A stretch of DNA of 64,000 nucleotides, from positions 320,001-384,000 of the forward strand of contig CAVYSY010000040.1 in assembly GCA_963771175.1 (NCBI GenBank), given 5' to 3'. How positions within the stretch are numbered: position 1 is the first letter of the stretch; each line of letters begins with the position of its first letter. Below are positions 38,351 through 57,704 of the stretch, piece after piece. Below the pieces are notes generated by a model. The model saw only the letters and a program-made list of their open reading frames with translations, did not search any database and had not been told where the DNA came from. Source of the stretch: an uncultured delta proteobacterium. GTDB taxonomy: Bacteria; Myxococcota; Myxococcia; Myxococcales; Myxococcaceae. Both the position numbers and the translations under genes were made by a program.

Positions 38351-38713
38351 ATGACCATGAAGACGGCCGAAGCCGCGGAGTCGCCGGATATGGTGTTCGC
38401 CAACAGGAGGGCCCATGAGCGGGTGTCCGCCACGTTCGATGTTCGCTTCCTGGATGCCCGGGACGCGGCGCGAGCGCTGCGCGCCTACTCGCTCAATCTG
38501 TCGGCGGGGGGGCTGTGCCTGCGCACGCGCCGCTCCTACGACGTGGGCGCGCGCGTGCGCCTGCAGCTGAGCGTGAGCGGAGAGGACTTCGAGCTCGAGG
38601 GCATCATCTCCTGGGTGCGGGACGATGCCGAGGCGATCGGCGTGCGGTTCGTCGACGTCAGCGATGCGGACCAGTCCCGCCTGCAGCGCGTGGTGACCAG
38701 CTTCAAGCGCTGA
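38351..38713 (+). CDS. Stand-alone PilZ domain protein (Myxococcales type)
   Basis: RRAHERV (RxxxR) and NLSAGG (D/NxSxxG) c-di-GMP motifs, IGVRF. Confidence 0.88.
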   Translation: MTMKTAEAAESPDMVFANRRAHERVSATFDVRFLDARDAARALRAYSLNLSAGGLCLRTRRSYDVGARVRLQLSVSGEDFELEGIISWVRDDAEAIGVRFVDVSDADQSRLQRVVTSFKR

Positions 38714-39356: not shown

Positions 39357-40412
39357 CTACGGCTGCTCGGACGCCAGGGAGCGGATGGCCGAGGTGATGT
39401 CACCCTGCTGGGGCACCGAGGCCATCTCCAGCGTGTCGGCCAGGCCGATGCCCGGCACGAACTTGCCGGCCAGCAGCCGGGGCGCCGCTACCAGCTTGTA
39501 GAAGAGCTCCTCCACCGCGCGGCGCATCAGGTGCTCACCGAAGTTGGTGACCTCGGTGTCCTCGTTGACGAAGAGCACGCGGCCCGTCTTCTCGATGGAG
39601 CCCTTGATGAGCTCCCAGTCGTAGGGCCACAGGGTGCGCATGTCGATGACCTCGGCGTCCACGCCCTCGCTGGCCAGGTCGTCCGCGGCCTTCTTGCACA
39701 GCGGCAGCGTGCGGCCGTAGCTCACCACCGTCACCTGCGAGCCCGAGCGCACCACCTTGCCCTTGCCGATGGGCACCGCGTACGCCTCGAGCTGCGGCCA
39801 CTGCGGCTTCCACTGCGAGCGGTCGCCCAGCGGCGCGTCGATCATCTTCGACAGCAGCTTCTCGTCCTCCGGCTCGCCCGGAATCCGCTCCTCGCCCTTG
39901 ATGCGCAGCAGCGCCTTGGGCTCCAGGTACATGACGGGGTTGATCTCCTGGCAGGCGGAGATCATCAGGCCGTACGCATCCAGCGGATTGGAGGGGATGA
40001 CGATCTTCCAGCCCGGGATGTGGGTGGCCGTCGCGTCGAAGGAATGCGAGTGGTAGATGGAGCCGCGGATGCCGCTGCCCACCGGGGTCTTCACCACCAT
40101 GGGCAGGTTCCAGTCCCCGTTGGTGGCCCAGCAGGTGTTGCCGGCGATCTTCAGCAGATCGATGGTGTTGTAGATGTAGTCGGCGAACTGGATCTCCGCG
40201 ACGGGCCGGGAGCCGGCCATGGCCAGACCGATGGCCATGCCGATGATGCCGCGCTCGTCCAGGGGCGAGTTCCACGCCTTCTCGAGGCCCTGCGTGGCGG
40301 TGAAGACGCCGCCCAGGGGGGCGCCCACGTCCTCACCGAAGATGTCGGTGACGCCGAGGTGCTGCTCGGCGTAGTGGAGGGCCATGCGAACGGCCTGTGC
40401 CATGTTGGCCAT
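39357..40412 (-). CDS. bkdB: 2-oxoacid dehydrogenase E1 beta subunit (branched-chain type)
   Basis: FGEDVG..GGVF..T, PLDERGIIG, PVAEIQFADY, YHSHS, EPKAL, EVIDMRTL; substrate class inferred from myxobacterial esg/bkd pair. Confidence 0.88.
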   Translation of the reverse strand: MANMAQAVRMALHYAEQHLGVTDIFGEDVGAPLGGVFTATQGLEKAWNSPLDERGIIGMAIGLAMAGSRPVAEIQFADYIYNTIDLLKIAGNTCWATNGDWNLPMVVKTPVGSGIRGSIYHSHSFDATATHIPGWKIVIPSNPLDAYGLMISACQEINPVMYLEPKALLRIKGEERIPGEPEDEKLLSKMIDAPLGDRSQWKPQWPQLEAYAVPIGKGKVVRSGSQVTVVSYGRTLPLCKKAADDLASEGVDAEVIDMRTLWPYDWELIKGSIEKTGRVLFVNEDTEVTNFGEHLMRRAVEELFYKLVAAPRLLAGKFVPGIGLADTLEMASVPQQGDITSAIRSLASEQP

Positions 40413-40415
40413 GGG

Positions 40416-41423
40416 TTACTTCCTCTCCGCGAAGATGTGGTTCCAGATGGTCTCGGGGGCCGGCAGCGGCTCCTCGCGGACCTGACGGGCCATGGCGGCC
40501 ATGTCCTCGGTGTAGCGGTTGCGCAGGTCGTCCATCTCCTTGCGCGAGAGGACGCCGTGCTTCTCCAGGCGCGTCTCGAACTGCGCCAGGCAGTCCTGCT
40601 CGTTGCCCACGAAGTTGGCGCCGGACGCCGAGGAGTGCCCGTACAGGCGCGACACCATGGCCTCCATCAGGAACGGCTTGCGCTCCTTGCGCACGTACTC
40701 CATCGCCTCCTGCAGCTCCTGGTAGGCGTTGATGGGATCGTTGCCGTCGATCGTCTTCGTGCGGATGTTGAAGGCCTTGCCGCGATCCGCCACGTGGGTC
40801 TCGCCGTGCTGGGTGTCCGCCGACGTGGAGATGCCCCACTTGTTGTTGGTGACGATGATGAGGAGGGGCAGCTCGCTGCCCGGGCGCGAGCTCCACACCA
40901 GGCACGAGGCGAAATCGCCCTCGGCCGTGCCCGCGTCACCGCCGGTGACGATGGTGATGCCGTCGCCGCCGTGGCGCTTCTGCGCCAGCGCCGTGCCCGG
41001 GGCCATCACGTACTGGACCTCGATGGGGGAGGACACCGGCGCGATGTTCCACTCGCGCTTGGAGAAGTGGCCCGCGAAGTTGCGGCCGCCGGAGTAGGGG
41101 TCCGCCGCCACGTTCTTCATCTGCCGCAGCGCCCCGATGGGCTCCTCGCCCAGCGCCATCATCGTGGCCGACTGGCGGTAGTGCGCGTGCAGGTAGTCGT
41201 AGGCCGGGCCCTGGCCCTTCTTCATGAGCAGGCCGAGCGGGACGTTGAAGGCCTCCTCGCCGGGGCCGCCGATCCAGAAGTACCCGTGGCCCTGCTTGTA
41301 CATCTGGATGAGGCGCTCTTCGAGGACGCGCGCCTTCACCATCAGGTCGTGCATCCGGACCAGGAGCTCCCGATCGAGTGGGAGCGAGTCTTCTTCGCGA
41401 TTGAGGAGGCGGGGTTTTGGCAC
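40416..41423 (-). CDS. bkdA: 2-oxoacid dehydrogenase E1 alpha subunit (branched-chain type)
   Basis: TPP motif GDAGTAEGDF..NNKWGIS, RLYGHSSA; directly upstream of beta subunit. Confidence 0.88.
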   Translation of the reverse strand: MPKPRLLNREEDSLPLDRELLVRMHDLMVKARVLEERLIQMYKQGHGYFWIGGPGEEAFNVPLGLLMKKGQGPAYDYLHAHYRQSATMMALGEEPIGALRQMKNVAADPYSGGRNFAGHFSKREWNIAPVSSPIEVQYVMAPGTALAQKRHGGDGITIVTGGDAGTAEGDFASCLVWSSRPGSELPLLIIVTNNKWGISTSADTQHGETHVADRGKAFNIRTKTIDGNDPINAYQELQEAMEYVRKERKPFLMEAMVSRLYGHSSASGANFVGNEQDCLAQFETRLEKHGVLSRKEMDDLRNRYTEDMAAMARQVREEPLPAPETIWNHIFAERK

Positions 41424-41806
41424 GCGCGTCTCTCTGGGTTGAAATAGGGGGATGAGCGGGGCCCCTCATACCCCAAAGGTGCCCCGAATACTCAAGGGCC
41501 CCGTGCCGGATCCGCCGTCCCGATTTTGCCGCGCTGCGGCGTGCGCAACCCCCTGTTCGCGGCCGACTTGCCGCCTCGTGCCGCACGCCTGGGAAGGTGA
41601 GGCTGCTGGACGTGAGTAGGGTGTTTGATGGTGGGGTTGTCCGAGGACAGCGACGCCAGATGGACTGGCGGCGGGGGCCAATACCCGAAGTGGAGCCGCT
41701 CCCGCACATCCAGGCGGATCCAGCTACCCTCTAGGTTTCTCATGGAGTTGCGCTAAAGTGGGTCTCCCCACTTTACTTATCCGTAGCGCGGTCCCAGCCG
41801 CTCCGG

Positions 41807-43579
41807 GTGTGCCCCTTGTCGAAATCCAACCTGTCGCCCAGACCCGAATCCGCGCCCGAGCCTGAAGCGGATGGTTCCTCCGCGCCGCTCAGTGCGAGTG
41901 ACTTCACTGCCACGCACACGAAGATGGCCGGCTACACCGCCACCTCCCTGTCCCCGCTGCATCCCGAGGCGACCGGCACCATCGTCGCTCCTCTAGAGGC
42001 GGGTGAGTTGCCCGACGTGGCCGCCGTGCGCGGGCTCCGGCTGGATCAGATCCTCCTCTTCACCACGGGTACGCTGCTGGTGCTGGTGGTGGGGCTGCTG
42101 GCCTTCGTGGCCACCGTGTCCAGCAAGAGCCAGTTCGAGGAGACCTCCGAGCGCTTCAAGCTGCGCATCCAGGATCAGGCTCGCGAGCTGGGCCAGACGC
42201 TCAGCCACACCCTGGCCCTCACGTCGGCCACGTCCCTGCGCGACAACAACTACGCCTTCCTCGGCGAGGTGGCGCGCTCCATCATCTCCGACAACCCCAA
42301 CATCCTCCGCGTGCAGATGTACGACGCGGAGGGGTTGCTGGTGGCGGACTCGAAGGAGGACGCGAAGCTGGGCGAGTCCACCGAGCGCAAGCCGGAGCGG
42401 CGCTGGGTGAGCGCGCTGTATGGTGGCAAGCCCATCATCGAGTACCAGGAGCCCATCGACTACGGTGCCCAGATTGGCAAGGGCATGGTCGTCATCAGCT
42501 ACTCGCTGGACGCGCTGCAGACGATGCTGCACGAGCTGGAGACCACGCGCACCGAGGCGCTGCGCCGCAACACCCTCACCATGGCCGGGCTGGGCGTGGG
42601 CTTCGTGCTGCTGGCCGGCATCCTGGTGGCCTTCCAGAGCCGGCGCATCACCCGACCGCTGGGCGTGCTCACCGTCAAGGTGATGCAGCTCGCCGCCGGT
42701 GACCTGAACGCGCGCGCCGAGCCGGCCCGCGGCGCTGGACGCGAGGTGCTCACGCTCGGCGTGGTGTTCAACCACATGGCCGAGCGCATCCGCGTGCTGC
42801 TGGACGACGTGCGCGCCAAGGCGCAGCTCGAGCGCGACGTGTCGCTCGCTCGCACCGTGCAGGAGACGCTGCTGCCGGGCCGCGAGGGCTACCAGGTGGG
42901 GCCCCTGCGCATCGCCGGGCTCGTGGTCACCGCGGATGCCTGCGGCGGTGACTGGTGGACGCGCTCCGCCCTGGACGAGCGGCGCGTGGTGGTGGGCATC
43001 GGCGACGTCACCGGCCACGGTCTGGCCACCGCGCTCGTGGCCACCAGCGCCACCAGCGGTTTCGCCGCCGCGATGACGATGCGCCATCCGGAGGAGATCT
43101 CCGCCCAGGGCCTCATCTCCTCGCTCAACGTCACCCTGGCCAACATCGGCCGGGGCGAGCACCAGATGTCCAGCGCGCTGGCCGTCATGGACGTGCAGAC
43201 GGGCGTCATCGATTACGCGAGCGGCGGTCACCCCAGCCCCATCGTCTACAGCCGCTCCACGCGCCAGGTGGCCTCGCTGCCCGCGCGCGGCGCGCTGCTG
43301 GGCGCCTCGGTGAACTCGCAGTACGCCTCGCGCCAGGCGCAGCTCCGGCCGGGCGACATCATCGTCTGGTACACGGACGGCCTCACCGAGTCGCGCGACG
43401 CCGCCCAGAAGCAGTACGGGACCCAGCGCCTGGCCGCCGCCATCCAGGCCCACGCCCACCTCTCCGCCGAAGCCCTGCGGGACGCCATCCTCGCCGATGC
43501 GCGTGCCTTCAGTGCTGGCCAGCCCGCGCACGATGACATCACCGTCGTCGTCGCCGAATTCGCTCCCGCCTCCCCATGA
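41807..43579 (+). CDS. Membrane sensor PP2C (SpoIIE/RsbU-type) phosphatase: TM-periplasmic domain-TM-HAMP-PP2C
   Basis: Two TM helices, HAMP (ITRPL..L..GDL..E..L..FNHM), AR.VQETLLP, GGDWW, IGDVTGHG, SGGHP, YTDGLTE, HDDIT. Start uncertain. Confidence 0.93.
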   Translation: MCPLSKSNLSPRPESAPEPEADGSSAPLSASDFTATHTKMAGYTATSLSPLHPEATGTIVAPLEAGELPDVAAVRGLRLDQILLFTTGTLLVLVVGLLAFVATVSSKSQFEETSERFKLRIQDQARELGQTLSHTLALTSATSLRDNNYAFLGEVARSIISDNPNILRVQMYDAEGLLVADSKEDAKLGESTERKPERRWVSALYGGKPIIEYQEPIDYGAQIGKGMVVISYSLDALQTMLHELETTRTEALRRNTLTMAGLGVGFVLLAGILVAFQSRRITRPLGVLTVKVMQLAAGDLNARAEPARGAGREVLTLGVVFNHMAERIRVLLDDVRAKAQLERDVSLARTVQETLLPGREGYQVGPLRIAGLVVTADACGGDWWTRSALDERRVVVGIGDVTGHGLATALVATSATSGFAAAMTMRHPEEISAQGLISSLNVTLANIGRGEHQMSSALAVMDVQTGVIDYASGGHPSPIVYSRSTRQVASLPARGALLGASVNSQYASRQAQLRPGDIIVWYTDGLTESRDAAQKQYGTQRLAAAIQAHAHLSAEALRDAILADARAFSAGQPAHDDITVVVAEFAPASP

Positions 43580-43584
43580 GTCTC

Positions 43585-46110
43585 ATGAGACGTCCTCCTC
43601 GTCCCCTGGTGCGCCGCCTTACGGCGGCGCTGGTCCTCATCAACTCGCTGGCTGGCACGGCCTCGTTCGCCCAGTACCGCCCACCGCCCATGACCGAGTC
43701 CCAGCGGCTCGTGCGTGAGGGTGAGTCGGCCCAGGTGGACGCGAGCTCCGCGGCCACCTCCGGCGACAAGAAGCGCGCCGACGCCAAGTACCGCAAGGCC
43801 CTGGAGCTCTTCGGCAAGGCGCTCGCCGAGGAGCCCGGCTCCGTCGAGGCCGCCGCCGGCCTCGGCGCGGTGGGCGTCGCGCTGCAGGAGCACGCCCTCG
43901 TGGTGGAGAAGGTGGGCCCCGTGTACGCCGCCCACCAGGACTCGCTCGACCTGGCCTACCCGCTGGGCATCTCGCTCTTCAAGCTGCGCCGCTATGACGA
44001 GGCGGTGCCGGTGATGCAGCAGGTGTCCGCCGCCAACAAGCCCGAGCACCTGCTCGTCCACTACTACCTGGGCAACTACTACGTCCTGGGCTCCGCGAGC
44101 GGCGACGAGGCCGTGGTCGAGCTGCAGACGTACCTGGCGCAGCGCCCGGACAAGATCGCCGCCAACGACTACCAGATCCACGAGCTGCTCGGCCGCGCCC
44201 ACCTGATGCGCGGTGACGCGGCGGCGGCGCGGCTCTCCTTCGAGCGCGCCCAGGCGGGCCGCACGGAGTCCGTCTCCATCCAGATGGGCCTGGCCCTGGT
44301 GCTGGAGATGGAGGAGCGGATGGGCGAGGCCATGGCCCTGCTCTCGGGCCTCACCGTGCGCTTCCCCAATGTGCCCGAGGCGAAGGAGCGCCTGGGTCGG
44401 CTGCTGCTGGCCTCGTCGGATCTGCCGGGCGCCGAGGCGCAGGCGCTGGCCCAGGTGAAGCTGGGCAGCACGCCCACCGCGCACATGCTGCTGGGTGACG
44501 TGCGCATGGCCCAGGGCCGTGCCGCCGACGCCGAGGCCGAGTACCGCAAGGTGCTGGAGCTGGCCCCGGGCGACGTGGCCGCGCAGATGGCCGTGGGCCT
44601 CGCGCTGCAGAAGCAGAACCGCAACGAGGAGGCCATTTCCTTCCTGGATGCCGCCGTGCAGTCCGGCGCCGACAGCCTGGAGCTGTGGGCCGCACTCGGC
44701 TCGGCGAACCGCCGCGCCGGCCGCTACCAGCGCGCCGTCGAGGTGCACCGCCGCGTGGTGGAGATGGCGCCCAATCTGGCCTACGGCCACCTGCTGCTCG
44801 GCGCGGACCACTTCGTCACGGGCCAGTGGGACCAGGCCATTGACGACTACGGCAACGCGCTCAAGGCCGAGCCCGAGCACGCCGAGGCCAGCAAGTGGCT
44901 GGCCCGCGCGTTGGCCTTCCGCGCGAGGGAGCGCGCCGGGGCGAACCGGATGGATGACGCCGTGCGCGACCTGCGTCGCGCCTTCGACCTGGAGCGCGAC
45001 GCGGCCATGGCCCGCCGGTTGGGCGCGGCCCTGCTGGAGCAGGGGGCCCACGCCGAGGCCCGCATGGTGCTGGAGCAGGGCGTGAAGTTGCCGGACGTCA
45101 CCTGGCGCGAGCACCTGCTGCTGGGTTACGCGCGGCTGGGCTCGGGCAATGCGCAGGAGGCCCTCGCGGCCTTCGAGCAGGCCGGGCAGATGGCCCCGGA
45201 CGTGGCCTCGCTGTCGGACGTGGCGGCGGGCACCGCGCTGGCGGAGATGGAGCTGGGCCGCACGGACGAGGCGCTCAAGCGGCTGGCCGAGCCGGGCAAT
45301 TCCAAGCGCGCCATCCAGGTGACCAAGGCCAACCTCTCGCGCGCGCACCTGCGCCGGGCCTTCTCCCGCCTGGAGTCCGGTGACGCCGCGGGCGCCCGCC
45401 AGGACGTGGAAGCCTCCGAGCGTGCCGGCATCAACTCGCAGGCCGAGCTGGGCCGCCTGGCGCAGTTCGCCAAGGCGCTCGTGCAGGTCGAGGAGGGGCG
45501 CTTCGCGGACGCCAGCGCGGGCCTCAAGCGCGCGCTCAGCCCGACCCCAGCGTGGAGCCGGCCCAACACCCGCCAGCTCGCCGACGCCTACGTCTTCTAC
45601 CGCCGCGACATGATGCCCCATGCGCGCAGGCTGCTGACGACGGCCGCCAAGCGCTCCATCCCGGAGCAGTCGCAGTGGCAGAACGCCCTCACCAGCGCCC
45701 TCCACCGCCGCGAGGCCGAGCGCGCGTACAACTCCGGCAACATGCGGGCGGCGGAGAAGGCCCTCAAGGCCGCGCTGGCCCTCGCGCCGGACAGCGCCGC
45801 CCTGCAGCACAACCTCGCTTGCGTGGCCTACCGCGGCGGCAAGTCCGCCGACGCCGTGGCCACCTGGAAGCGGCTGGAGGGCGCCGTCCCCCAGGCCACG
45901 CTCAACCTCGGCATCGACGCCCAGGAGCGCCGTCGCAGCGTGGGCGAAGCCGTGGATGCCTACCGCCGCTACGTCGCCACCGGCGGCCCGCGTGCGGCCG
46001 TCGTGCGCGAGTGGAAGGAGCGGCTCCAGATGCTCTACGGCTTGTCCGACCCCGCCCCCACTTCCAACCCCGAGCCCTCCAGCGCCACCGCTTCGGACAC
46101 CACGCCATGA
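43585..46110 (+). CDS. Large secreted TPR-repeat protein
   Basis: Signal peptide ending ASFA-Q; many TPR-like units (AHMLLGDV..AEAEYRKVLELAP, ELWAALG, ALQHNLACV). Confidence 0.9.
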   Translation: MRRPPRPLVRRLTAALVLINSLAGTASFAQYRPPPMTESQRLVREGESAQVDASSAATSGDKKRADAKYRKALELFGKALAEEPGSVEAAAGLGAVGVALQEHALVVEKVGPVYAAHQDSLDLAYPLGISLFKLRRYDEAVPVMQQVSAANKPEHLLVHYYLGNYYVLGSASGDEAVVELQTYLAQRPDKIAANDYQIHELLGRAHLMRGDAAAARLSFERAQAGRTESVSIQMGLALVLEMEERMGEAMALLSGLTVRFPNVPEAKERLGRLLLASSDLPGAEAQALAQVKLGSTPTAHMLLGDVRMAQGRAADAEAEYRKVLELAPGDVAAQMAVGLALQKQNRNEEAISFLDAAVQSGADSLELWAALGSANRRAGRYQRAVEVHRRVVEMAPNLAYGHLLLGADHFVTGQWDQAIDDYGNALKAEPEHAEASKWLARALAFRARERAGANRMDDAVRDLRRAFDLERDAAMARRLGAALLEQGAHAEARMVLEQGVKLPDVTWREHLLLGYARLGSGNAQEALAAFEQAGQMAPDVASLSDVAAGTALAEMELGRTDEALKRLAEPGNSKRAIQVTKANLSRAHLRRAFSRLESGDAAGARQDVEASERAGINSQAELGRLAQFAKALVQVEEGRFADASAGLKRALSPTPAWSRPNTRQLADAYVFYRRDMMPHARRLLTTAAKRSIPEQSQWQNALTSALHRREAERAYNSGNMRAAEKALKAALALAPDSAALQHNLACVAYRGGKSADAVATWKRLEGAVPQATLNLGIDAQERRRSVGEAVDAYRRYVATGGPRAAVVREWKERLQMLYGLSDPAPTSNPEPSSATASDTTP

Positions 46111-47015
46111 AATTCCTTCGCTCGCTCATCCTGGGTCTCGCGCTCGTCGGCGCGGGGGCTCCTGTTGCTGGCGCGGCCCCCAAGAAGGCCACCCTGGGCG
46201 TCTTCCTGCCCACCACCCTCAACGAGGGCCAGCAGCGCTTCCAGTACGCCGAGGCGCTCGCCGAGAAGCTGTCCACGGCGACCGGCCGGCCCACGGCGGC
46301 CAAGAGCTTCGCCCGCTACGAGGACTTCTCGAAGGCCGTCTCCGAGGGCATCGTCGACTTCGCCGTCGTGGACTCCTGGGCGGCCGTGCAGCTCGGCAAC
46401 AAGGCCACCCCGGTGGCGCTCGCGCAGCTGTCCGGTGAGACGTCCCAGCGCTGGGCCATCGTCTCCACCTCGAAGAGCTCGGTGAAGGAGCTGGCCGGCG
46501 CGCGACTCGCCATCGTCAAGGGCGCGGGCGCGACGGATCCCAAGTTCGTCACCAACGTGGTGCTGGCCGGTGACCTGGACGCCAAGAAGCACTTCAAGCT
46601 CACCTCCGTGCCCAACGTGGAGTCCGCCCTCAAGATGCTGGAGGCCAAGGGCGCCGAGGCGGCCCTGGTGCCGCTGACGCACGTGCCGCAGGGCGTCAAG
46701 GTGCTCTACCGCAGCAGCAAGGTGCCGGGCGCCGTGCTCATGGGCATGCGCGGGGATGCGGATGACCTGAAGGAGAACCTGAAGAAGCTCGATGCGGTGG
46801 CCCCCTTCGGGGCCTTCGTCGCCGTGCAGGGCAAGGAGCTGGAGGACTTCGGCAAGCTGCTCCAGCGCGGCCCGCCCCGCCGTCAGCCAATGTTGGTGGA
46901 ATCCGGTTCGCTCAAAGTGGAGACGAAGGCCTTCCTCGATCCCCAGTCGCTCCAGCCCGTTCTGCCCTCCTTCGCCGATGCCCTGGATGTGTCCGCGGAA
47001 CAGCCGGATGACTGA
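46107..47015 (+). CDS. Periplasmic binding-protein-like (PhnD/phosphonate-bd fold) protein
   Basis: Signal peptide, YEDFSKAVSEGIVDFAVV, SVKELAGARLAI, GAEAALV pattern of type 2 periplasmic binding proteins; ATGA overlap with TPR gene. Confidence 0.7.
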   Translation: MKFLRSLILGLALVGAGAPVAGAAPKKATLGVFLPTTLNEGQQRFQYAEALAEKLSTATGRPTAAKSFARYEDFSKAVSEGIVDFAVVDSWAAVQLGNKATPVALAQLSGETSQRWAIVSTSKSSVKELAGARLAIVKGAGATDPKFVTNVVLAGDLDAKKHFKLTSVPNVESALKMLEAKGAEAALVPLTHVPQGVKVLYRSSKVPGAVLMGMRGDADDLKENLKKLDAVAPFGAFVAVQGKELEDFGKLLQRGPPRRQPMLVESGSLKVETKAFLDPQSLQPVLPSFADALDVSAEQPDD

Positions 47016-47186
47016 CGGGGTAGGGGGCGCGACTCCTGCTTCATGAAGAGATAGAGTAGTTACAATTCAACAACCCGGGCGTGAGGGACCGTCCGCCAAT
47101 CCTGGCGGCGGAGGCGTGTTGCGGCGGGCAACCACCGGACACGGACTCGAGCGGCTCTCACCCAATTCGTGGGACGTCAGAGAACG

Positions 47187-49508
47187 ATGCACTCGACTCG
47201 AATCGGTTGGCTGCGGAGCAAGGCTCTCTTGGGGCTGATGTGCGGCGTGGTCGCCGGGAGCGCCGCCGCGCAGACGAAGTCCTCCCCGTCGGCCTCATCG
47301 CGGGCCGCCGTCAAGGGAGCCTCGAAGGAGGAGCAGGTCGCCGCGGCGGAGCCGATGACGGATTCTCCGCGCGCGCCCAAGGGGCAGAAGTCGAAGCTGC
47401 CGATGCCGACGCGTGGCGCGGCCCTGCCCGATGCGGCTCCGCCCAGCAACGTGCCGCAGCGCTCGCCCTTCACTGGCCCGGTCAGCACGCGCGCCCTGCC
47501 TCCGCCCTCGAGCCTCGCCGGCCTGGACATCCCGGAGCCGGTCGCCGCCCAGGAGGGGGGCGCCTCCCTCGAGGAGTCCGTGCAGCAGCTCCTGAGCGAG
47601 GTCATGGTCTCCACCGCGTCCAAGCGCAACCAGCGCATCGTGGACGTGCCGATGACGGTGTCCTGGATTTCCGCCGAGGAGCTGGAGGGCACCGGCCAGT
47701 TCACCCTGTGTGAGGCCATCCAGTACTTCCCCGGCATGGAGTGCCGTCGCGGCTCCATGCGCAAGGCGGCGGTGAGCGCGCGCGGCCTGGGCTCCAACTA
47801 CCTGTCCAACCGGCTCCTGCTGCTCAAGGATGGCCGGCCGCTGACGGACCCCTGGACGGGTCAGTTCTACGCGGACGAGACCACGCCGCTGAGCAACCTC
47901 AAGCAGGTGGAAGTCATCCGCGGCCCGGGTTCCTCGCTGTACGGCTCCAACGCCTTCAGCGGCGTCATCAACATCATCGAGCGCCAGCCGTCGGACCTGA
48001 TGAAGGATGGGCGTGACTGGGGCGTGGACGCGCGCCTGCTGGCCGGCCAGAACAGGACCTGGCGGGCGCAGGCCACCGCGGCGGGTCGCGGCGGCCCGGT
48101 GGAGGCGCTGGTCAGCTACTACGGCCTGAGCTCGGACGGCCCGCAGCTCTTCAACGACCCGCAGAAGGGCATCACGGACAAGAACGAGGACTCGCTGGTG
48201 CACCAGGTGAGCGGCAAGGTGCGCGTGAAGAGCGTGTCGCTGGACGCCGACTTCACCAGCGCGGAGATCGGCCGGCCGGGTGGCAAGCAGATCACCACCA
48301 CCGGCAACTGCGGCCGCTGCCACTACACGCCCAACGACGTGGAGCGCGTGCAGAACCTCAACGCGAGCGCGCAGGTGGACCAGCAGGTGACGGACAACCT
48401 GCGGGTGTTCGCCCAGGGCTATGCCTTCTTCAAGCGCCGCACGGTGGATCAGGAGAACATGATCACCGGCGACCTCCAGGCCGCGCTCGGCAAGCGCCGC
48501 CGGCTGGGGGCCGAGGCCCGCGCGCTGCTCTCCCTGGGGGACCTCTCCGTCACCTTCGGCGGTGACTTCAAGAACGACCTGGTCAACAACCAGAACGTCC
48601 TGTCCGGCCTGACCGCGGACGACACCACCCAGGACATCCTCGGTGGCTTCGTGGACGCGGAGTACCGGCCCTTCAGCAAGCTGGTGCTCGGCGCGGGTGC
48701 CCGCTACGACCGGTACATCATCCCGGAGAAGGTCTGGGCCATGCGCACGGACCAGCTCTCCCCGCGCGCCAGCGTGGTGTTCCACGCGCTGCCCGCGCTC
48801 ACCCTGCGCGCCAACTACGGCCGCGCCTTCCGCGCGCCCACGCTCGCGGAGCTGGCCATCAACCAGCAGATGTACGGTGCCACGCTGCTCGGCAGCCCGA
48901 ACCTGCGCGCGGAGACGCTGGACACGGTCGAGGCCTCGGTGGACTTCTGGCCGTTCGACCGCAAGGTCCGCATGACGGGCACGGGCTTCATCAACTACGC
49001 GAAGAACTTCATCAACCAGGAGTACCTCTTCGGCTCCACGTCGCAGTTCAAGAACATCGGCAACGCGCAGGTGCGCGGCTTCGAGCTGGAGGCGGCGGCA
49101 CAGGTGGCCGCCATCAACTCCTCGTTCGACGTGGCCTACCAGTTCCTGGATGCGCGCGCGCTGGCCTTCGATGGCAGCACGTCGGGGCCGCTGGACTACG
49201 CGCCCAAGCACCGCATCTACGCACGCGGCCGGACGAACTTCGGCAAGGTCGCCTTCGCCGAGGTGTACGGCCTGTTCGTGGGTGAGCGCTTCGATCCGGG
49301 CTTCCAGGTGGACTCCACCACCGGCGAGGCCAAGCGCGTGTCGCTGCCCAGCTACGTCACCGCCACCGCGCGCGTGGGAGCCAACATCACCGAGGGCCTG
49401 TCGGTCTCGCTGCTCGGCTCCAACCTCTTCAATGCGCAGTACGAGGAGTCCCACGGCTTCCCGGCCCCCCCGCTGAGCGTCTTCAGCGAGATCAAGTACC
49501 AGTACTGA
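47187..49508 (+). CDS. TonB-dependent receptor
   Basis: Signal peptide, VSTASK, ISAEEL, LLLKDGRP, QVEVIRGPGSSLYGSNAFSGVINII plug motif, GRAFRAPT, NLFNAQY, C-terminal IKYQY. Confidence 0.95.
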   Translation: MHSTRIGWLRSKALLGLMCGVVAGSAAAQTKSSPSASSRAAVKGASKEEQVAAAEPMTDSPRAPKGQKSKLPMPTRGAALPDAAPPSNVPQRSPFTGPVSTRALPPPSSLAGLDIPEPVAAQEGGASLEESVQQLLSEVMVSTASKRNQRIVDVPMTVSWISAEELEGTGQFTLCEAIQYFPGMECRRGSMRKAAVSARGLGSNYLSNRLLLLKDGRPLTDPWTGQFYADETTPLSNLKQVEVIRGPGSSLYGSNAFSGVINIIERQPSDLMKDGRDWGVDARLLAGQNRTWRAQATAAGRGGPVEALVSYYGLSSDGPQLFNDPQKGITDKNEDSLVHQVSGKVRVKSVSLDADFTSAEIGRPGGKQITTTGNCGRCHYTPNDVERVQNLNASAQVDQQVTDNLRVFAQGYAFFKRRTVDQENMITGDLQAALGKRRRLGAEARALLSLGDLSVTFGGDFKNDLVNNQNVLSGLTADDTTQDILGGFVDAEYRPFSKLVLGAGARYDRYIIPEKVWAMRTDQLSPRASVVFHALPALTLRANYGRAFRAPTLAELAINQQMYGATLLGSPNLRAETLDTVEASVDFWPFDRKVRMTGTGFINYAKNFINQEYLFGSTSQFKNIGNAQVRGFELEAAAQVAAINSSFDVAYQFLDARALAFDGSTSGPLDYAPKHRIYARGRTNFGKVAFAEVYGLFVGERFDPGFQVDSTTGEAKRVSLPSYVTATARVGANITEGLSVSLLGSNLFNAQYEESHGFPAPPLSVFSEIKYQY

Positions 49509-49517
49509 GTCGTTCCC

Positions 49518-50375
49518 TTGAGATTCGCCCTACACCCGGAGGCCGCCCCCGGCCTCCAACTCATCGCAGATGTCTCCCTGGCTCCCGCCGTGCTGGAGCA
49601 GGCCGCGCCCGCGCTCGTGCGCAGCGGTCTGCCCCTGGTGTCGGGGGCGGGGAGCTCGCGTGTCCCGGCGCGCGAGTTGGTACTTTTCGACGGTCGCCTG
49701 GGTCCGTCCCACGCCGCCCTGCTGGAGCGGGACCCTCCGGCCCTGCTGCTGGCCACTCGTGAGGCGGGGGGCACCCCGTCCGAGTGGGAGGCTCGGGTGC
49801 TGGCCTCGCTCGTGCGGGGCGAGTCGCTGCTGCCCCCGGACGCGGCGGGGGCGAAGCTGTGGCTCGAGCGGGTGGCTGATCTCAAGGTCGCCTCATCCGA
49901 GGTGGCCGCGCTGGTGGAGTCTTCCGGGGGCAGCCGGAGCGCGGCGAACCTCGCGGCCGACGTGATGCACGAGCTGGCGGCCAACGCGCTGCTGGACGCG
50001 CCGGCGGATGCCCAGGGCACGCCGTACTACGCCCACCAGCGCGATTCGGTGGTGGCCGTGGCCCCCGAGCACGTCTGCCAGGTGTCGATGGCGGTGGGGG
50101 AGGGCGGCATCTACCTGGAGGCGGTGGATCTCTTCGGGCGGTTGACGCCGGAGCCCATCGCGAGGGCGGTCTCCTCGCTGGGCGGGCGAGCGCAAGTGAA
50201 CGCTTCCGGGGGTGGGGCGGGGCTGGGAATGCGCCGCATCCTGGAGCACTGTGATCTGATAGCCGTACGCGTGGTGCCCGGGAAGGAAACCCGGATGCTG
50301 GGCGTGGTCGGTTTCGGGGAGGCGCGACGCCGCGCCGCGTTCCCCAAGTCGTTGCTGTACTTCAAGTCGGAATGA
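49518..50375 (+). CDS. Stand-alone HATPase-like protein (RsbW/SpoIIAB-like candidate)
   Basis: HELAANALLDAP (N box), VDLFGRL (G1), GGGAGLGM (G2); no HisKA H-box seen. Start uncertain. Confidence 0.65.
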   Translation: MRFALHPEAAPGLQLIADVSLAPAVLEQAAPALVRSGLPLVSGAGSSRVPARELVLFDGRLGPSHAALLERDPPALLLATREAGGTPSEWEARVLASLVRGESLLPPDAAGAKLWLERVADLKVASSEVAALVESSGGSRSAANLAADVMHELAANALLDAPADAQGTPYYAHQRDSVVAVAPEHVCQVSMAVGEGGIYLEAVDLFGRLTPEPIARAVSSLGGRAQVNASGGGAGLGMRRILEHCDLIAVRVVPGKETRMLGVVGFGEARRRAAFPKSLLYFKSE

Positions 50376-50386
50376 GGAGCGGGACC

Positions 50387-53300
50387 GTGGAGACGCAGTC
50401 TTCCAACGCCACTATCAGCCGCGTGCGAGTGGGTACCATCAACCACGTTCGCATCGCTGGCGTCATCGACGAGACGTTCCCGCTGACGGCATCCTCTCCG
50501 GACCTCGGTGGGCTCATCATCGTCGACCTGGGCCAGGTGGAGCGCATCAGCTCCTTCGGCGTGCGGCGGTGGATCGAGTTCGCCAGCAAGATGCCCCCCG
50601 GGGGCATTGGCTCTACGTGGTCAACGCGCCACCGGTGATGGTCGACCAGCTCAACATGGTGGAGGGCTTCTCCGGCGTGGCGCGGGTGCTGTCGGTGCTG
50701 GCGCCCTACACGTGCCGCGCCTGCGACGAGGATCGGCTGCGCCTGGTGGATCTGCAGGCGGAGGCCGCGGTCATCGCCGACGGCCGCGCGCCGGAGCACT
50801 CCTGCCCGGTGTGTGCCGGCAAGCTGGAGTTCGCGGATCTCCCCGAGCGAGTTCTTCGACTCACGCCAGGCGCCAGCAGTTCGGCACGGTGGATCCGGTG
50901 GTGATGCGCTACCTGCGCGCCACCACGCCGAGCGCGCCCGCCGCGCTCACCACGCACCTGAAGATCATCCAGGACGACATCACGTTCATCTCCCTGGCCA
51001 GCGAGCTGAAGGGGGACCTGAACGTGCGCCGGCTGGCCTCGGGCCTGGAGGGGCGCGTCGCCTTCGACTTCGCGCACGTCACCAAGGTGGAGCCGGAGGC
51101 CGTCGGCAAGCTGGAGCAGGTGCTGGCCACGGCGGCGCAGGGGGCCAAGGAGGTGGTGCTGTGCCGGCTGCCACCGCCGGCGCTCAATCGCCCTGGCGCG
51201 CTTCACCCGGCCGCTCACCGCGAAGATCGCCACGTTGTGGCTGCCGTGCGAGTGCCGCAACTGCGGCCATGAGCACCAGCAGCGCGCCCTCGCTTCCGAG
51301 TACCTCGCCAAGCTGCGCGCCAACGCCAGCCCGGAGCGCGAGTGCCCCATCTGCGGTGGCACCGCGCGCCTTCCCTCCGTCCCCCAGCTCCTGCCGCTGC
51401 TTGGACGCTCGGCGCTGGTGGACCGGCCGATGGACGACATCGAGGCGCTCGAGCCGCGCGCCCTCAGTCAGTACCTCTTCGGCTCCACCAACGTGGACCC
51501 GAGCGCCAACAAGGGCACCACCTCGGACATCAGCAGCTCCATCGACAACAAGCTGCAGATCATCCGCCGGCTGGGCCAGGGTGGCATGGCGGAGGTGTTC
51601 CTCGCCAAGCAGGTGGGCGTGAAGGGGTTCGAGAAGTTCGTGGTGATGAAGAAGATTCTCCCGCAGTTCGCGGAGAACTCTGAGTTCGTCGACATGCTCT
51701 TCGCCGAGGCGCGGGCCAACGCGCGCCTCACGCACCCCAACGTCGTGCAGACGTTCGACGTGGGCATGTCCGGTGGCGTGGCGTACATCCTCATGGAGTA
51801 CGTCCGCGGCCCGGACCTCAAGAAGCTGCTGAACGAGCTGCGGCGCAAGGGGGTCGCCCTGCCGCTGGAGCACGCGCTGCGCATCGTCGCCGAGACGGCC
51901 GCGGGCCTGCACTACGCGCACAGCTACGTGGATCCCGCCGGCGTGCCCCACCCGGTGGTGCACCGCGACGTCAGCCCGCACAACGTCCTCATCTCGCTCG
52001 ACGGTGCCATCAAGCTGAGCGACTTCGGCATCGCCAAGGTCCAGGGCGAGGAGAACACCCAGGCGGGCGTGCTCAAGGGGAAGATCTCCTACATCTCCCC
52101 GGAGGCGGCGGCCGGCCGGCCCCTGGACGCGCGCAACGACGTGTTCGCCCTGGGCGTGGTGCTCTTCGAGCTGCTCACCGGCCAGCTGCCCTTCAAGCGG
52201 GACCACGACGCGGCCACGCTCAACGCGATCGTTCGCGAGCCGGCGCCCATACCCTCGCAGCTCAGGCCGACCATCCCCCAGGACGTGTCGGACCTCATCC
52301 TGCGTGCCCTGGTGAAGGATCCGGCGCGCCGCACGCCGTCCGCCGCGGCCATGCGCGAGGAGATCGAGGCGGTGATGGCCCACCACCGGCTCAACTCGTC
52401 GCCGGCGGCGGTGGCCCAGTTCTTCAAGGTGACGCTGGGCGAGCGGCTGGCGGAGTTCGGCCCCGTCACCAGCGGCCCTCATACCGGCTCGTACCCGAGT
52501 GCGGGCACGGGCAGCGGTGCTCGTCCGTTGGCCCCGGGAGGAACGGGGGAGATGATGGCACCCGCGGACTCGTCCCTGCGGTCCGGGACGGGCTCGCGGC
52601 CCAGCGCGAGCGGCACCGGGCAGTATGGCGGCTCCGTGCCTCCGCCGCCTCCTTCGGCGGCAGCGCGTCCGGTGGCGCCTCCACCGCCCGCTTCAGGGTT
52701 CCCCACGGAGGATCGTACCGAGGTCTACCGGCCCGTGCAGCAGGGCCTCATCGCCCAAAACGCGATGTCGCCCGAGCCTCCGAGGGCGAACCCGGCGGCC
52801 CCGCCCGCGAGGCCCTCGCAGTCCGGCATGCCTCCCATTCCGCCTCCGCCTCCGCCCACTGTGGCGTCGCGTCCGGCGGTCACGGCTCCGCCCGTTGGTG
52901 CTCAGGGCGTGCCCATGGCGTCGCGGCCCTCCGGCTCCGGGCCGGTGGCGCCGCCCCGTCCGTCCGGGCCCGCGTTGCAGCCGGCGATCCCGGTGGACAC
53001 CCGCACGACGACCCAGACGGTCCCCGCGTCCGTTCCCGTGGCCGCTCCTCCTGCTGCCCACAAGGCTCCGGCGGCCCCCAAGGCTCCGGTCGCGGCGGCT
53101 CCGGCCCCATCCGCACCATTGCCCGCCGCGAAGTCCTCGGCGTCCAAGTGGATCGTCATGGGCATCACCGGGCTCCTGCTGCTCGCCGGTGCCGGCGTGG
53201 TGGTCTCGAAGATGGGCTCCGGGAGCGGCATCGAGGTGATCAACCTCGAGGCGGGTGAGCAACTCTACGTGTCCGGCGTCCAGACGGATCCGAAGAACGT

Positions 53301-53640
53301 GAGTCTGGAAGGCTCCGGCATGTACGTCATCTCCACCGCCATGAACGGCCGCCTGCGCCGCTTCGGGACGACGTCGCCCAAGGATGTCATCGACGTGCGC
53401 ACCCTCCCCGAGGCGATGCCTCAGCAGGGGAGCACGGGGACGGTGCACATTGGCGGAAAGGCTGGCTGCTACGTGAAGGTGGGCACGGAGATGCTCTCCG
53501 GTTCGACGCCGGTGAAGGCCAACATCGAGGCCGGCCGCGAGCTGGAGATCACCGTGACCTGCCCCGGTCAGTCCCTGTGGATTCAGCGGGTGCTGGCGGT
53601 GCCAGGGCAGGAGCTGGAACTCACGCCCACGCCCCAGTAA
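50387..53640 (+). CDS. Membrane Ser/Thr kinase with two N-terminal STAS-like + Zn-ribbon modules; ~4 indels at ~50600, 50845, 50862, 51186
   Basis: GVIDE..VDLGQVERISSFGV (STAS), CRAC..CPVC, second module DFAHVTKVEPEAV with CRNC..CPIC; kinase LGQGGMAEV, VVMKKI, HRDVSPHN, SDFG, GKISYISPE; Pro-rich linker; TM WIVMGITGLLLLAGAGVVV; C-terminal PEGA-like domain. Confidence 0.88.
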
Positions 53641-53731
53641 TCATCGTGGAGTCGCTTCGCGGTGCCGTGCTCGGATGTGGTATGCGCGCGTCCGGGCCAG
53701 AAGTGACTGGCCGAAAGAAAGGCTTGGTTCG

Positions 53732-54172
53732 ATGGCATCACTCACCGAGGCACTCACCAGCGGAACCAGGAAGGCGGCGGTCATCGACGACTGCTGCGCC
53801 CTCATCGACGCCGAGGTCGCCGACAAGGGCGGCATCTCGGGCTTCGCCATCAAGGCGGGCTACAGCGCCGTCAAGGGCATCAAGCCCGGCTTCATCCGGC
53901 ATGCCGTGGAGGATCTCCTCCCCGAGTTCGCCAAGGCGCTCGAGCCGCTCTACCAGGAGGCCAAGGCGGGCGGAAAGCCGGTGGCTTCCCACATCACGTC
54001 GAACGCGGCGCGCGCCGCTGACGCCCTCCTCTCCATCACCGACACGAAGGTGCGCCACGCGCAGAGCGGCCTGGTGAAGGGGACGTACGACAAGCTGCGC
54101 GGCACGGCGAAGAAGAACGTCGAGTCCGCCATCCCCCGCATCGGCAAGCTCATCGAGAAGCACGCGAGCTGA
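53732..54172 (+). CDS. Conserved hypothetical protein (DUF6918-like)
   Basis: LIDAEVADKGGISG..K.GY..VKGIKPG, ADALLSITD, Y.KLRG.AKKNV pattern; good codon bias. Confidence 0.75.
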   Translation: MASLTEALTSGTRKAAVIDDCCALIDAEVADKGGISGFAIKAGYSAVKGIKPGFIRHAVEDLLPEFAKALEPLYQEAKAGGKPVASHITSNAARAADALLSITDTKVRHAQSGLVKGTYDKLRGTAKKNVESAIPRIGKLIEKHAS

Positions 54173-54256
54173 GCGCGGCTTTTCTCCGTCCGCGAGTGTA
54201 GCGTCCCGCTCTTGATGGAGCGGGGCGGGCTGGCCGGGAGCAGGACCTCACGCACA

Positions 54257-55170
54257 TCACCGATGAGGATCGCGAGGGGGTCGGCATCGAGTTCTATGCC
54301 GTCGTCCTGGAGAAACGGTAGCGGACCCCTCGGAGGGGGGACCGAAGCCCCCCGGAATGTGCTCGAAGGACACCACGCTCTGCGTCAGTGCCGGGAAGCC
54401 CAGCTCGCGTGAGAGTCGCCAGAGCTGTTGCCGGAACACGGGCTCGGAGGGCACCGGCTCCTGGGTGCCCACCAGGATCAGATTGTTGCTCTCCGCGGTG
54501 CCGCGCAGCAGGGCGCAGTCCTCGAAGGCCCGGGCGAAGGTCTCGATGCGCGAGGCCACGGTTCGGGGATCCTCGAACGCGACGTTGCGCACCGCGACGC
54601 CTCCGGGGGCGAGCCTGTGCCGGACGTCCTCGAAGAAGCGCGAGTTAGTCAGGTGCTCCGGAGCCCCGCTGTCGGAGAAGGCGTCGAGGAGGATGAGATC
54701 GTAGCGAGGCCCCTCTTGTTCCATGAAGCGGGCCCCATCCTCCTCCACGATGCGAAGCCGGGGATCCTCGGGGACGCCGAAGAAGCGATGGGCGACCTCC
54801 ACCACCACCGGATTGAGCTCCACCACCTCCACCACCATCTGGGGCAGGCGCTGGTGCAGCATCAGGGGAAACGAGCCCCCGCCCAGGCCCACCACCAGGG
54901 CGCGGGAGCGGCCCTCGGTGAGCGCGAGCCCGGCGATGGCCCGGCGCACATAGTTCAACGGGATCGCCCGGGGGTCGCTCTTGATGAGGACGCTCTGGCA
55001 AGCCCCCTCGGGGCTGCCGAAGTGGAGCGAGCGCAGGTCGCCCTCGTCCACCACGAACACGGGACCGAAAGGGGATGGGGCCTCGTGGACAACCATCAGG
55101 GCGCCTGGGTCGGAACGGGGTCAAGGGCCCGGTTGTGGAGAGCGAACAACCCGAGAGTCCTACGTGACAT
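54257..55170 (-). CDS. Spermidine-synthase-like class I SAM-dependent transferase
   Basis: ALVVGLGGGS, VVELNPVV, EDGARF, YDLILLDAF, LAPGGV. GAGGAG RBS + ATG 55170 joins the 55096 ORF if a C run gains one base; otherwise start 55096. Confidence 0.8.
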
Positions 55171-56645: not shown

Positions 56646-57704
56646 ATGAGCACCTCGGCTCCGGGAGAGTCCCCGGTCCTGTCCTTCCGACACCTGCTGT
56701 CCGACGCGGTCGGCTCGTTCCTCCATGAAGCCGGGCTGGCGCCCGCGCAGGTGGGGGACGCACTCAGTGAGCTCATCGTGACGCTGTCTCGCTACCGCGA
56801 GGAGGGCGAGCCGCTCTTCCCCGTGGCCTTCCTGGGCGACGACCTGGAAGAGATGCTGCGCGTGCTGGGCGGGAGCGAGCCGGTGTCCATTGGAGTGGGC
56901 CCTCGGACGCGGGAGACGATCCAACGGGCACTCAAGCAGTGCGCGCCCCTGGGGCAGGGGCGGTGGTGGGGGCTGTACGTGCTGCTGGTGCCGGAGGGCT
57001 TCGCCTACGGCGTCTTCCGGACGGACCCCTCGCCGCTGGTGGAGACGCCCCTGGAGCGGATGCGGCGGGCCGGAGATCGCTCGCTGCGCATGGTGGGCGT
57101 GCTGCAACTGGCGGAGAACGTCATCGAGCTGCGCGGCATGGGAGGCCTGTATCGGCACGTCTTCCTGTCCGGCGCGCGGTTGGAGTCCTCGCTGCCCACG
57201 GTGGCGATGGACGAGCTGGCGCTGTCGCTCACCGCGGACGTGTTGGAGCCGGCGCGGAGCCTGACGCGGGACTTCTACCGGCGGGTGCTCTTCGAGGCCA
57301 TGCAGGCCAAGCACGGCACGCTGGTGGCGGTGCTGCCGAAGGGCAGCGGTGACTCGCCGTTGTTCGTGGATGGTGTGCTGCTGGCGCAGCCGATCGACAT
57401 GGTGGCGCGGGTGATGCGCTACCACGAGAGCCCGGACGTGGAGGCGGCCTCGGCGGTGAGCGCGGCGGCGCAGCTCCTGCGCGGGATGATGGCCACGGAC
57501 GGCATCACCGTGCTGCGCTCGGACGGGTTCATCCTCGGCTACAACGTCTTCATCCGGCACCCGGAGACGCTGATGCGTGCGCCGGGCCGCGTGGGCGGCG
57601 CGCGGCGGCGGACCTACGAGGTGCTCAGCGCCTGGGTGGGGCGGGAGCTGACGGCGGCCTTCTTCCGCTCCCAGGACGGCGCCGTGGCCTGCTGCCGGGA
57701 CTGA
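56646..57704 (+). CDS. Divergent diadenylate-cyclase (DisA_N/DAC)-fold protein with uncharacterised N-terminal domain
   Basis: HGTLVAV, TDGITVL..ILGY, GGARRRT, RSQDG match the order of DAC motifs (HGA-LI, DGA, GTRHR, SE/QDG). Confidence 0.6.
   Translation: MSTSAPGESPVLSFRHLLSDAVGSFLHEAGLAPAQVGDALSELIVTLSRYREEGEPLFPVAFLGDDLEEMLRVLGGSEPVSIGVGPRTRETIQRALKQCAPLGQGRWWGLYVLLVPEGFAYGVFRTDPSPLVETPLERMRRAGDRSLRMVGVLQLAENVIELRGMGGLYRHVFLSGARLESSLPTVAMDELALSLTADVLEPARSLTRDFYRRVLFEAMQAKHGTLVAVLPKGSGDSPLFVDGVLLAQPIDMVARVMRYHESPDVEAASAVSAAAQLLRGMMATDGITVLRSDGFILGYNVFIRHPETLMRAPGRVGGARRRTYEVLSAWVGRELTAAFFRSQDGAVACCRD

Follow-up and report, generated by a model that had tools for sequence, protein, structure and literature searches.

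Regulatory partner switches that operate without a sigma factor are already known, amongst them SiaABCD, BgrSTUWV and HptB-HsbA (PMC8457831; here and below, papers are cited for particular passages, tables or supplements). There is likewise precedent for periplasmic input into membrane sensors: chlamydial RsbU carries a periplasmic sensor domain and senses a periplasmic metabolite (PMC8256260, PMC11619594), and two binding proteins of the PF12974 family (table in PMC10942540), AioX and XAC2383, pass signals to sensors in the membrane (AioX, PMC5908839; XAC2383, from a title in the reference list of PMC10380989). Here we analyze a six-gene operon within a 64,000-nucleotide stretch of DNA (the window; assembly GCA_963771175.1, contig CAVYSY010000040.1, positions 320,001 to 384,000) from an uncultured member of the Myxococcaceae. 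The genes are the counterparts of MXAN_4562-4557 of Myxococcus xanthus and specify a membrane phosphatase, a TPR protein, a periplasmic binding protein, a TonB-dependent receptor, a GHKL-type kinase and a Hanks-type kinase that begins with STAS domains. Our best reading, which we hold with moderate confidence, is that they encode a sigma-less partner switch with SiaABCD-like logic, a periplasmic input of the AioX/XAC2383 type and an output through the fused Hanks kinase. It builds on what we observed of the genes present, their folds, the conservation of catalytic and acceptor residues, linkage and joint loss, and on a modeled docking of the binding protein onto the sensor.

The six genes occupy positions 41807-53640 of the window on the + strand and abut or overlap one another; their coordinates and domain matches bear out a preliminary description of the locus, made from its letters and open reading frames, as six co-directional, mostly abutting genes. 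In gene order, Pfam and NCBIfam recognize HAMP and SpoIIE domains, TPR, Phosphonate-bd, Plug with a TonB barrel, nothing, and Pkinase. The nearest named relatives of the window belong to Archangium, and the genome that carries it (G000; other sampled genomes have G numbers and fetched loci L numbers) is 81.7% complete in 58 contigs. In M. xanthus the same six annotations occur in the same order with gaps of at most 23 nt (supplements of PMC9548883 and PMC6791715), and the gap before the receptor gene, 47016-47186 in the window, is only 22 nt there. No sigma-70 promoter was found in 41300-54400 of the window, and terminators there were not in excess. The six M. xanthus genes drop together at 6 h of predation (log2 fold change -0.68 to -1.08; supplement of PMC9548883), are roughly flat in RNA-seq of development, where MXAN_4560 alone was assigned to a group, and are not named in four supplements of PMC8844925 (transcription start site data).

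The first member of the putative switch, encoded at 41807, is a SpoIIE-type PP2C (SpoIIE E 1.5e-41; PF07228 142.9 bits, cut-off 25) with a HAMP domain (E 1.9e-9), a weak SMP_2/dCache match and predicted transmembrane helices at residues 82-100 and 257-275; sCache_3_2 is matched in its homologues in L087 and L179. The preliminary description had called it an inner-membrane PP2C with intact metal-binding Asp motifs, and we found all of these (GGDWW, IGDVTGHG, YTDGL and HDDIT). G000 contains a single full-length SpoIIE domain, that of this sensor, plus three partial matches, and MXAN_4562, which has a HAMP domain, is the sole SpoIIE-like phosphatase of M. xanthus (PMC2887360).

The 49518 protein, 56% identical to MXAN_4558, has no Pfam or NCBIfam match, and searches with its family against PDB and Pfam were also empty, such that a fold search alone placed it. 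Its AlphaFold2 model (predicted local distance difference test, pLDDT, 87.9) matches SpoIIAB (Foldseek E 3e-6; VIA Z 12.3, root-mean-square deviation 2.9, 135 residues aligned), followed by UsfX (VIA Z 11.3), SiaB (10.8), RsbW (10.3) and LvrC (9.7), with Rv1364c within 9.5-11.3 and histidine kinases at no more than 6.3. The protein should bind ATP, because the ATP-site residues are nearly invariant across 95 family members (N-box Glu and Asn, 95/95; GxGxG, 95/95; G1 Asp, 94/95). By fold and motifs, then, it is a putative GHKL serine kinase of the SpoIIAB/RsbW type lacking a DHp domain and H-box, and the earlier view of a stand-alone HATPase without an H-box stands in that respect. The protein is not bare, though: its N-terminal ~110 residues form a beta-alpha repeat structure (residues 13-100), which we infer to be a receiver-like domain from the model, from this pattern and from PF00072 matches in two paralogues (one above cut-off); the Asp is present in 33 of the 95 members. 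Two proteins of ~1500 aa end in a GHKL domain of this family (L070:9565-14133 and L072:1249-6024), and the one in L070 begins with PilZ, a possible cyclic di-GMP input.

The candidate substrate of this kinase is the N-terminal part of the sixth protein. The preliminary description recognized that this kinase starts with a STAS domain; there are in fact two STAS-Cys4 ribbon repeats, the first (STAS1) with an invariant Ser and the second (STAS2) without Ser at the acceptor position. That description mentions neither the zinc ribbons nor the frame breaks described below. The STAS-ribbon model (pLDDT 91.6) matches SpoIIAA, RsbV, RsbS and 4hyl with modest scores; Foldseek gives a probability of 1.0 to SpoIIAA, RsbV and 4hyl at E 3e-3 to 2e-2, and VIA Z is a middling 7-8 for the second repeat. 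Among 97 STAS1 domains from loci L001-L080 (at least 60 bits), Ser, Gly and Trp are invariant (97/97) and the Cys4 ribbon follows in 93, and the Ser aligns with the DSAG/SSAG Ser of TM1442 and 4hyl, as would be expected of a STAS-fold substrate with a conserved phospho-acceptor. G000 holds one member of each of the three triad families by our profiles, all in the operon. The GHKL kinase scores below all Pfam models for HATPase_c_2, and the STAS-ribbon mostly below those for STAS. Zinc-finger hits of the STAS-ribbon profile were rejected as artefacts of Cys spacing.

In the window the sixth gene is not one open frame: its 5' 900 nt are spread over four frames owing to single-base indels near 50607, 50841-45, 50860-62 and 51188, each relative to five of five aligned relatives, and in nine of nine relatives the same start opens a single frame of 1066-1125 aa. 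Contigs from public sequencing runs lack the indels (all four sites were covered in three of four runs and three sites in the fourth), and one such contig spans the full 3 kb with 31 other letters. The indels are most likely assembly errors, since near-identical public contigs lack them and rpoB of G000 is broken as well, and for the same reasons, together with the intact frame of relatives, we rejected the possibility of a pseudogene. The split of rpoB over three frames (G000:C25:96748-100856) points to many indel errors in the assembly and counsels distrust of its broken genes generally. We analyzed the kinase in an intact relative, L005. The window protein matches PF00069 with 144.8 bits, and the motifs of a Hanks kinase (HRD, DFG, the Gly loop, an APE-like motif and that of subdomain IX) are present both in L005 and in window frame 51235-53640; a C-terminal membrane helix and an outer domain follow.

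Partner switches of this fold commonly act on sigma factors, and the preliminary description reported none nearby. Consistent with that claim, a sigma region 2 match lies within 6 kb of only one of 162 loci, where ~6 would be expected from its density in G000. The linkage test would miss an unlinked sigma factor, and the GHKL protein could be an anti-sigma factor for a sigma factor encoded elsewhere, with STAS1 as its antagonist and the kinase fusion merely tethering or co-regulating STAS1. The top fold matches SpoIIAB, UsfX and RsbW are anti-sigma factors, LvrC, which joins a receiver to a Bergerat domain, has been proposed to be one with an unlinked sigma factor (PMC13269768), G000 has 33 sigma region 2 matches, and stand-alone STAS-ribbon proteins exist. 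We nevertheless judge this arrangement unlikely: 161 of 162 loci show no sigma linkage, the protein ranking third among the fold matches, SiaB, works without a sigma partner, and STAS-ribbons are recurrently fused to Hanks kinases (58 open reading frames) and to other effectors. Indeed, these repeated fusions suggest control in cis.

On the periplasmic side, the binding protein matches PF12974 (E 7e-11), and its sole convincing sequence match in PDB is 7t1m (BstB; E 4.3e-5). Beyond the PF12974 fold it has a conserved E-x-P-D-D tail (window 46989-47015), a possible TPR-binding or docking motif. It is encoded with an inner-membrane HAMP sensor, and a simple motif search, aimed at the ATPase only, found no ABC ATPase signature in full six-gene loci, in line with what had been claimed of the window. 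We modeled two sensor periplasmic domains with one binding protein, a pairing that the preliminary description had proposed for structure prediction, as a three-chain job in three runs with alignments of our own making and three controls. The complex scored 0.71 against 0.41 for the best control, the runs shared at least 95% of contacts, and partner pLDDT was at least 79; 116 of 157 solved pairs attain this score mark, as do 2 of 215 mismatched ones, although these figures are only approximate for a three-chain job with our own alignments. The modeled contact places the sensor RDNNY motif (residues 145-149) against the VPNxES helix of the binding protein, whose interface is invariant at 20 of 29 residues compared with 56 of 249 elsewhere (the sequences being kin rather than independent). 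These predictions support docking of the binding protein on the periplasmic domain of the sensor. The earlier analogy with YfiNR gives way to closer periplasmic precedents in the PF12974 proteins AioX and XAC2383, not YfiR.

The TPR gene lies directly upstream of the binding protein gene in all three of the gene arrangements described below, and the TPR proteins share a C-terminal motif; the protein is probably a periplasmic scaffold. The receptor has a low-complexity N-terminal extension and a TonB-box-like stretch. It does not resemble a FecA-type transducer, having Plug and barrel and no Pfam signaling (STN) domain, and a sigma or FecR-like gene is absent among the six; MXAN_4559 was detected in outer-membrane and vesicle proteomes (PMC3222651, PMC4158809). 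The first suggestion, that receptor and binding protein probably signal rather than import, agrees for the binding protein with the docking model and with the lack of a linked ABC ATPase; the receptor most likely transports, and it is not a constant part of the system.

To define how widely the operon is conserved, we sampled 400 genomes of the phylum plus G000, of which 125 match the HATPase profile (a tally that includes the unpublished genome G209). Counting orthologues at 200 bits or more, one copy per genome and with G000 and G209 excluded, all in the family of the window and thus kin, 92 genomes have the HATPase, 89 the binding protein and 88 both; the two lie within 4.5 kb in 78 and on separate contigs in 8. 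The genes co-occur in other genomes of the family, as the preliminary description would require. All six genes are present in 23 of 35 fetched loci (22 in the order of the window, L037 rearranged); two loci are cut by a contig end, nine are partial, and one, L004, was a chance match and was excluded. In split operons (L081, L083, L037) the TPR and binding protein genes remain beside the sensor PP2C gene, and in G210, G160 and G218 the two halves of the operon are unlinked. Weak binding-protein matches (L088-L099, L185-L190), mostly without a linked triad by our profiles, were not counted, and neither were L183, in which binding protein and HAMP-PP2C genes lie 4 kb apart with others between, nor L184, with a divergent TPR.

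Gene loss follows a pattern. Orthologues of the sensor, binding protein and receptor were jointly not found in G010, G193, G217, G224 and G288. The HATPase and STAS-ribbon were also not found in G010 and G193, and the GHKL and STAS kinases are kept with another PP2C in G224 and G288. G160, G218, G384 and G274 retain both the binding protein and the receptor orthologue (52-67%), also where the two are unlinked. These patterns bear on whether the operon has two functions, the receptor, TPR and binding protein forming an uptake or envelope module with an unlinked permease, and the triad working separately. PF12974 consists mostly of ABC solute-binding proteins (PMC10942540), the triad occurs without envelope genes in many paralogous loci and with another PP2C in G224 and G288, and the halves can be unlinked, as noted above. 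Against this, TPR and binding protein keep their place beside the sensor PP2C both in split operons and across the three gene orders, losses of sensor and binding protein coincide, six-gene loci lack an ABC ATPase signature, and the complex model passes, so that we regard a division into two functions as quite improbable.

The same components recur in two further arrangements, the three gene orders belonging to deep lineages of Myxococcota. The second, TPR-binding protein-GHKL kinase-stand-alone STAS-ribbon-Cache-HAMP-PP2C-TonB receptor, comes from another class, where two (L087, L100) of 19 genomes have it, with sensor and binding protein homologous to those of the window (hhalign, 98.6% and 95.6%); a metagenome scan with its binding protein gave no match. 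The third comes from 80 metagenome loci (80 kept of 158) found with one tight STAS-ribbon subfamily. Of the 69 loci that leave room for it, 54 have the binding protein gene directly upstream; PP2C and, in long loci, TPR genes are upstream of the binding protein (18/19), a PAS histidine kinase gene is directly downstream (35/35), and a GHKL family member is ~7 kb away in five. In L115 (4037-4726) and like loci, a small opposite-strand open reading frame, PAS-like by eye, lies between an upstream STAS-ribbon gene and the PP2C gene. Cache-HAMP-PP2C, TPR protein, binding protein, STAS-ribbon and GHKL kinase form the constant core, with the TonB receptor in two of three orders and the Hanks fusion in one. 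When 43 PP2C domains are placed in a tree, each arrangement falls into a supported group of its own; a single origin may apply, since the approximately unbiased test does not reject it (p-AU 0.308, with L039 added to the tested group after the tree had been seen) and does not establish it.

More distant GHKL paralogues, in 45 loci, many on short contigs, have a STAS-ribbon within 5 kb in 36, a PP2C in 17 and either in 41. The preliminary description took the Ser/Thr kinase as the output of the switch; STAS-kinase fusion does recur, as one of several outputs. The STAS-ribbon/GHKL pair looks like a reusable module, because it occurs in many Myxococcota families with different inputs and outputs. 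Amongst the paralogous loci, L052 (2346-9047) encodes a 2234-aa protein in which a Hanks kinase is joined to three FIST pairs and a STAS-ribbon, with GHKL kinase and PP2C genes coming after it; L043, L050, L051, L056 and L073 are clusters that hold, within 20 kb, multiple STAS-ribbon proteins along with STAS-ribbon kinases and as many as three GHKL paralogues; and L062, L068 and L020 have large Hanks kinase-PP2C fusions or neighbors opposite the GHKL gene.

Such pairings raise the possibility that the main target of the PP2C is the Hanks kinase, or the substrates of that kinase, and that the STAS-ribbon is structural or senses metal or redox, its Ser being unregulated. Metal or redox sensing is within the repertoire of Cys4 ribbons, the paralogous loci often pair or fuse a PP2C with a Hanks kinase, and G217 keeps the Hanks kinase as an orphan. 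We nonetheless give this explanation little credence: in arrangements 2 and 3 no Hanks kinase is fused, yet PP2C, STAS-ribbon and GHKL kinase are all there, the GHKL kinase would lose its substrate, and the phosphatase belongs to the SpoIIE subtype, whose targets are STAS proteins (PMC2887360, PMC8256260).

In the partner switch that we favor, the binding protein would dock on the periplasmic Cache-like domain of the membrane PP2C, and the binding of ligand, or else a change that the TPR protein passes on, may set phosphatase activity through the second transmembrane helix and HAMP domain, by analogy with other HAMP sensors. Judging from folds, invariant residues and linkage, the GHKL kinase would phosphorylate STAS1 Ser61 and the PP2C would remove the phosphate. 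The state of STAS1, together with the zinc ribbon and the Ser-less STAS2, would then control an effector, in Myxococcaceae the fused, membrane-anchored Hanks kinase and in another lineage probably the adjacent PAS histidine kinase. Where present, the TonB receptor would most likely bring the ligand into the periplasm, to be sensed rather than imported into the cytoplasm. More broadly, and as a tentative proposal that may well prove too wide, we envisage an as yet undescribed class of partner switches, spread over the phylum and based on a STAS-zinc-ribbon substrate and a receiver-like/Bergerat kinase that both escape Pfam, the myxococcal form being a cell surface-to-Hanks-kinase relay that runs from TonB receptor to binding protein, Cache-HAMP-PP2C, STAS1 Ser and fused Hanks kinase.

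Several observations weigh against this mechanism. In the closed genome G217 five of the genes are gone, and the STAS-ribbon kinase, its Ser retained, persists directly beside esgAB; together with the patterns of loss, this indicates that the envelope parts move as a unit and that the kinase does not strictly need them. (In the G217 orphan, L191:2962-5964, the Arg after the STAS1 Ser motif and the HRD Arg are altered, perhaps reflecting relaxed selection.) The sensor interface is not especially conserved (9 of 20 residues, against 55 of 136 in the rest of the domain), its DNN motif decays in the third lineage, and the complex model may have passed owing to likeness to solved complexes of binding proteins with sensors. 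No TonB receptor occurs in the 80 third-arrangement metagenome loci, 25 of which are at least 10 kb long, and there is only weak likeness between the receptors of the first two arrangements (one finds its counterpart as best G000 hit, the other as second-best in a near tie). Prestin STAS domains, too, have Ser at the STAS1 position, and G000 has other STAS proteins that the PP2C might target (5 PF01740 and 6 PF13466 matches).

The gene neighborhood offers one hint about the ligand. The bkd genes for the E1 alpha and E1 beta parts of branched-chain keto acid dehydrogenase (esgAB in M. xanthus, MXAN_4564/4565) lie at 39357-41423 of the window on the - strand, and the operon diverges from esgAB in 19 of 29 orthologous loci, most with only 2.3-3.6 kb of upstream DNA, and in none of three deeper-branching loci with at least 5 kb. 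E-signal lipids act from outside the cell (PMC3950526), and the one structural sequence match of the binding protein, a weak one, is to the sterol binder BstB. The adjacency may be plain inherited synteny, and we consider a lipid ligand, for instance the branched-chain E-signal, extremely unlikely.

Table 1. Features of the six-gene operon, by position in the window.
Feature	M. xanthus	Position	Strand	Remark
Inner-membrane sensor phosphatase: transmembrane helix 1-periplasmic Cache-like domain-transmembrane helix 2-HAMP-SpoIIE-type PP2C	MXAN_4562	41807..43579	+	start codon uncertain
RDNNY motif of sensor periplasmic domain, residues 145-149; center of predicted binding-protein contact		42239..42253	+	model
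Exported TPR protein, 844 aa	MXAN_4561	43576..46110	+	Pfam TPR; export judged by eye from N-terminus
Periplasmic PF12974-type binding protein; hydrophobic N-terminal signal, conserved C-terminal PDD tail	MXAN_4560	46110..47015	+	
TonB-dependent receptor	MXAN_4559	47169..49508	+	Plug and barrel; start possibly ATG at 47187
Receiver-like domain plus Bergerat-fold (SpoIIAB/RsbW/SiaB-like) putative serine kinase, 285 aa	MXAN_4558	49518..50375	+	
STAS1-Cys4 ribbon-STAS2-Cys4 ribbon-Hanks kinase-Pro-rich linker-transmembrane helix-outer domain	MXAN_4557	50372..53640	+	
Codon of STAS1 Ser61, predicted phospho-acceptor		50552..50554	+	invariance and alignment
Predicted transmembrane helix of kinase		53152..53208	+	hydropathy scan

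Other genes around the operon are a stand-alone PilZ protein (38240-38713, +), a DUF6918 protein (53675-54172, +), a spermidine-synthase-like methyltransferase (54257-55096, -) and a 352-aa protein without a Pfam match (56646-57704, +). The DUF6918 neighbor is absent from every fetched locus and was not counted as an operon member.

Parts of the operon have appeared in the literature. PMC2887360 describes anti-anti-sigma domains fused to eukaryote-like kinases in S. cellulosum and states the orthology of sce8427 and adeh0917; its passages on these proteins do not identify MXAN_4558 as a kinase, MXAN_4557 as a STAS-ribbon protein or the operon as a pathway. MXAN_4561 is the edge of a predicted cluster (PMC4902038), and we rejected the lantipeptide-cluster label for these genes, which stems from where one tabulated predicted cluster is bounded (MXAN_4545-4561) and is no functional assignment. 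A full-text literature search, whose scope excluded subscription journals and book chapters, so that an earlier name for MXAN_4557 may exist, found no account of the operon as a pathway. The initial statement, that no description of this combination as a pathway was known to its author, holds to that extent, and is tempered by the existence of sigma-less switches with a membrane PP2C, SiaABCD being one.

The operon is real and conserved and is probably a single signaling system, in which partner switching has an unusual input and output. M. xanthus has 96 Hanks kinases (PMC2887360), few of which have a known upstream signal, and the operon gives one of them a complete candidate input. It also supplies the only SpoIIE-like phosphatase of M. 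xanthus with a candidate substrate and an opposing kinase, both of which were hidden because they score under Pfam models. If correct, a partner switch acting in cis on a Hanks kinase and a binding protein gating a PP2C would extend two known signaling designs.

Compared with described systems, the operon is most like SiaABCD of P. aeruginosa (PMC8457831), in which a membrane PP2C (SiaA), a GHKL kinase (SiaB) and a STAS-like protein (SiaC) control an enzyme and not a sigma factor. It is not a member of that system: the sensor matches the SiaA NCBIfam model at E 1.2e-15 (57 bits, against a cut-off of 700), DUF1987 and GGDEF were not found among the six genes, and it has instead a STAS-Cys4 ribbon, a Hanks fusion, an extra N-terminal domain on the kinase, and linked TPR, binding protein and TonB receptor genes. 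With SpoIIE-SpoIIAA-SpoIIAB and RsbU-RsbV-RsbW it shares three folds and a Ser at the conserved loop (PMC8256260, PMC11619594), and differs in having no linked sigma factor, a STAS protein that is not STAS-only, sensing that apparently runs through a separate binding protein, and sequences that fall under Pfam models. LvrC of Leptospira (PMC13269768; Foldseek E 1.7e-4, VIA Z 9.7) is likewise a fusion of a receiver with an anti-sigma-type domain of Bergerat fold; here the N-terminal domain is degenerate (Asp in 33/95), and STAS substrate and phosphatase are linked. The binding protein resembles the sterol-binding protein BstB of Methylococcus (PMC10942540) over ~90 residues of 7t1m, with 26 bits to the NCBIfam model against a cut-off of 350 and no BstA or BstC at the locus, such that the ligand is not transferable. 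Finally, in contrast to AioX-AioS and XAC2383-XAC2382, the sensor of this operon has a SpoIIE phosphatase as its output in place of a histidine kinase or cyclase, and the binding protein is accompanied by a TPR partner and a TonB receptor.

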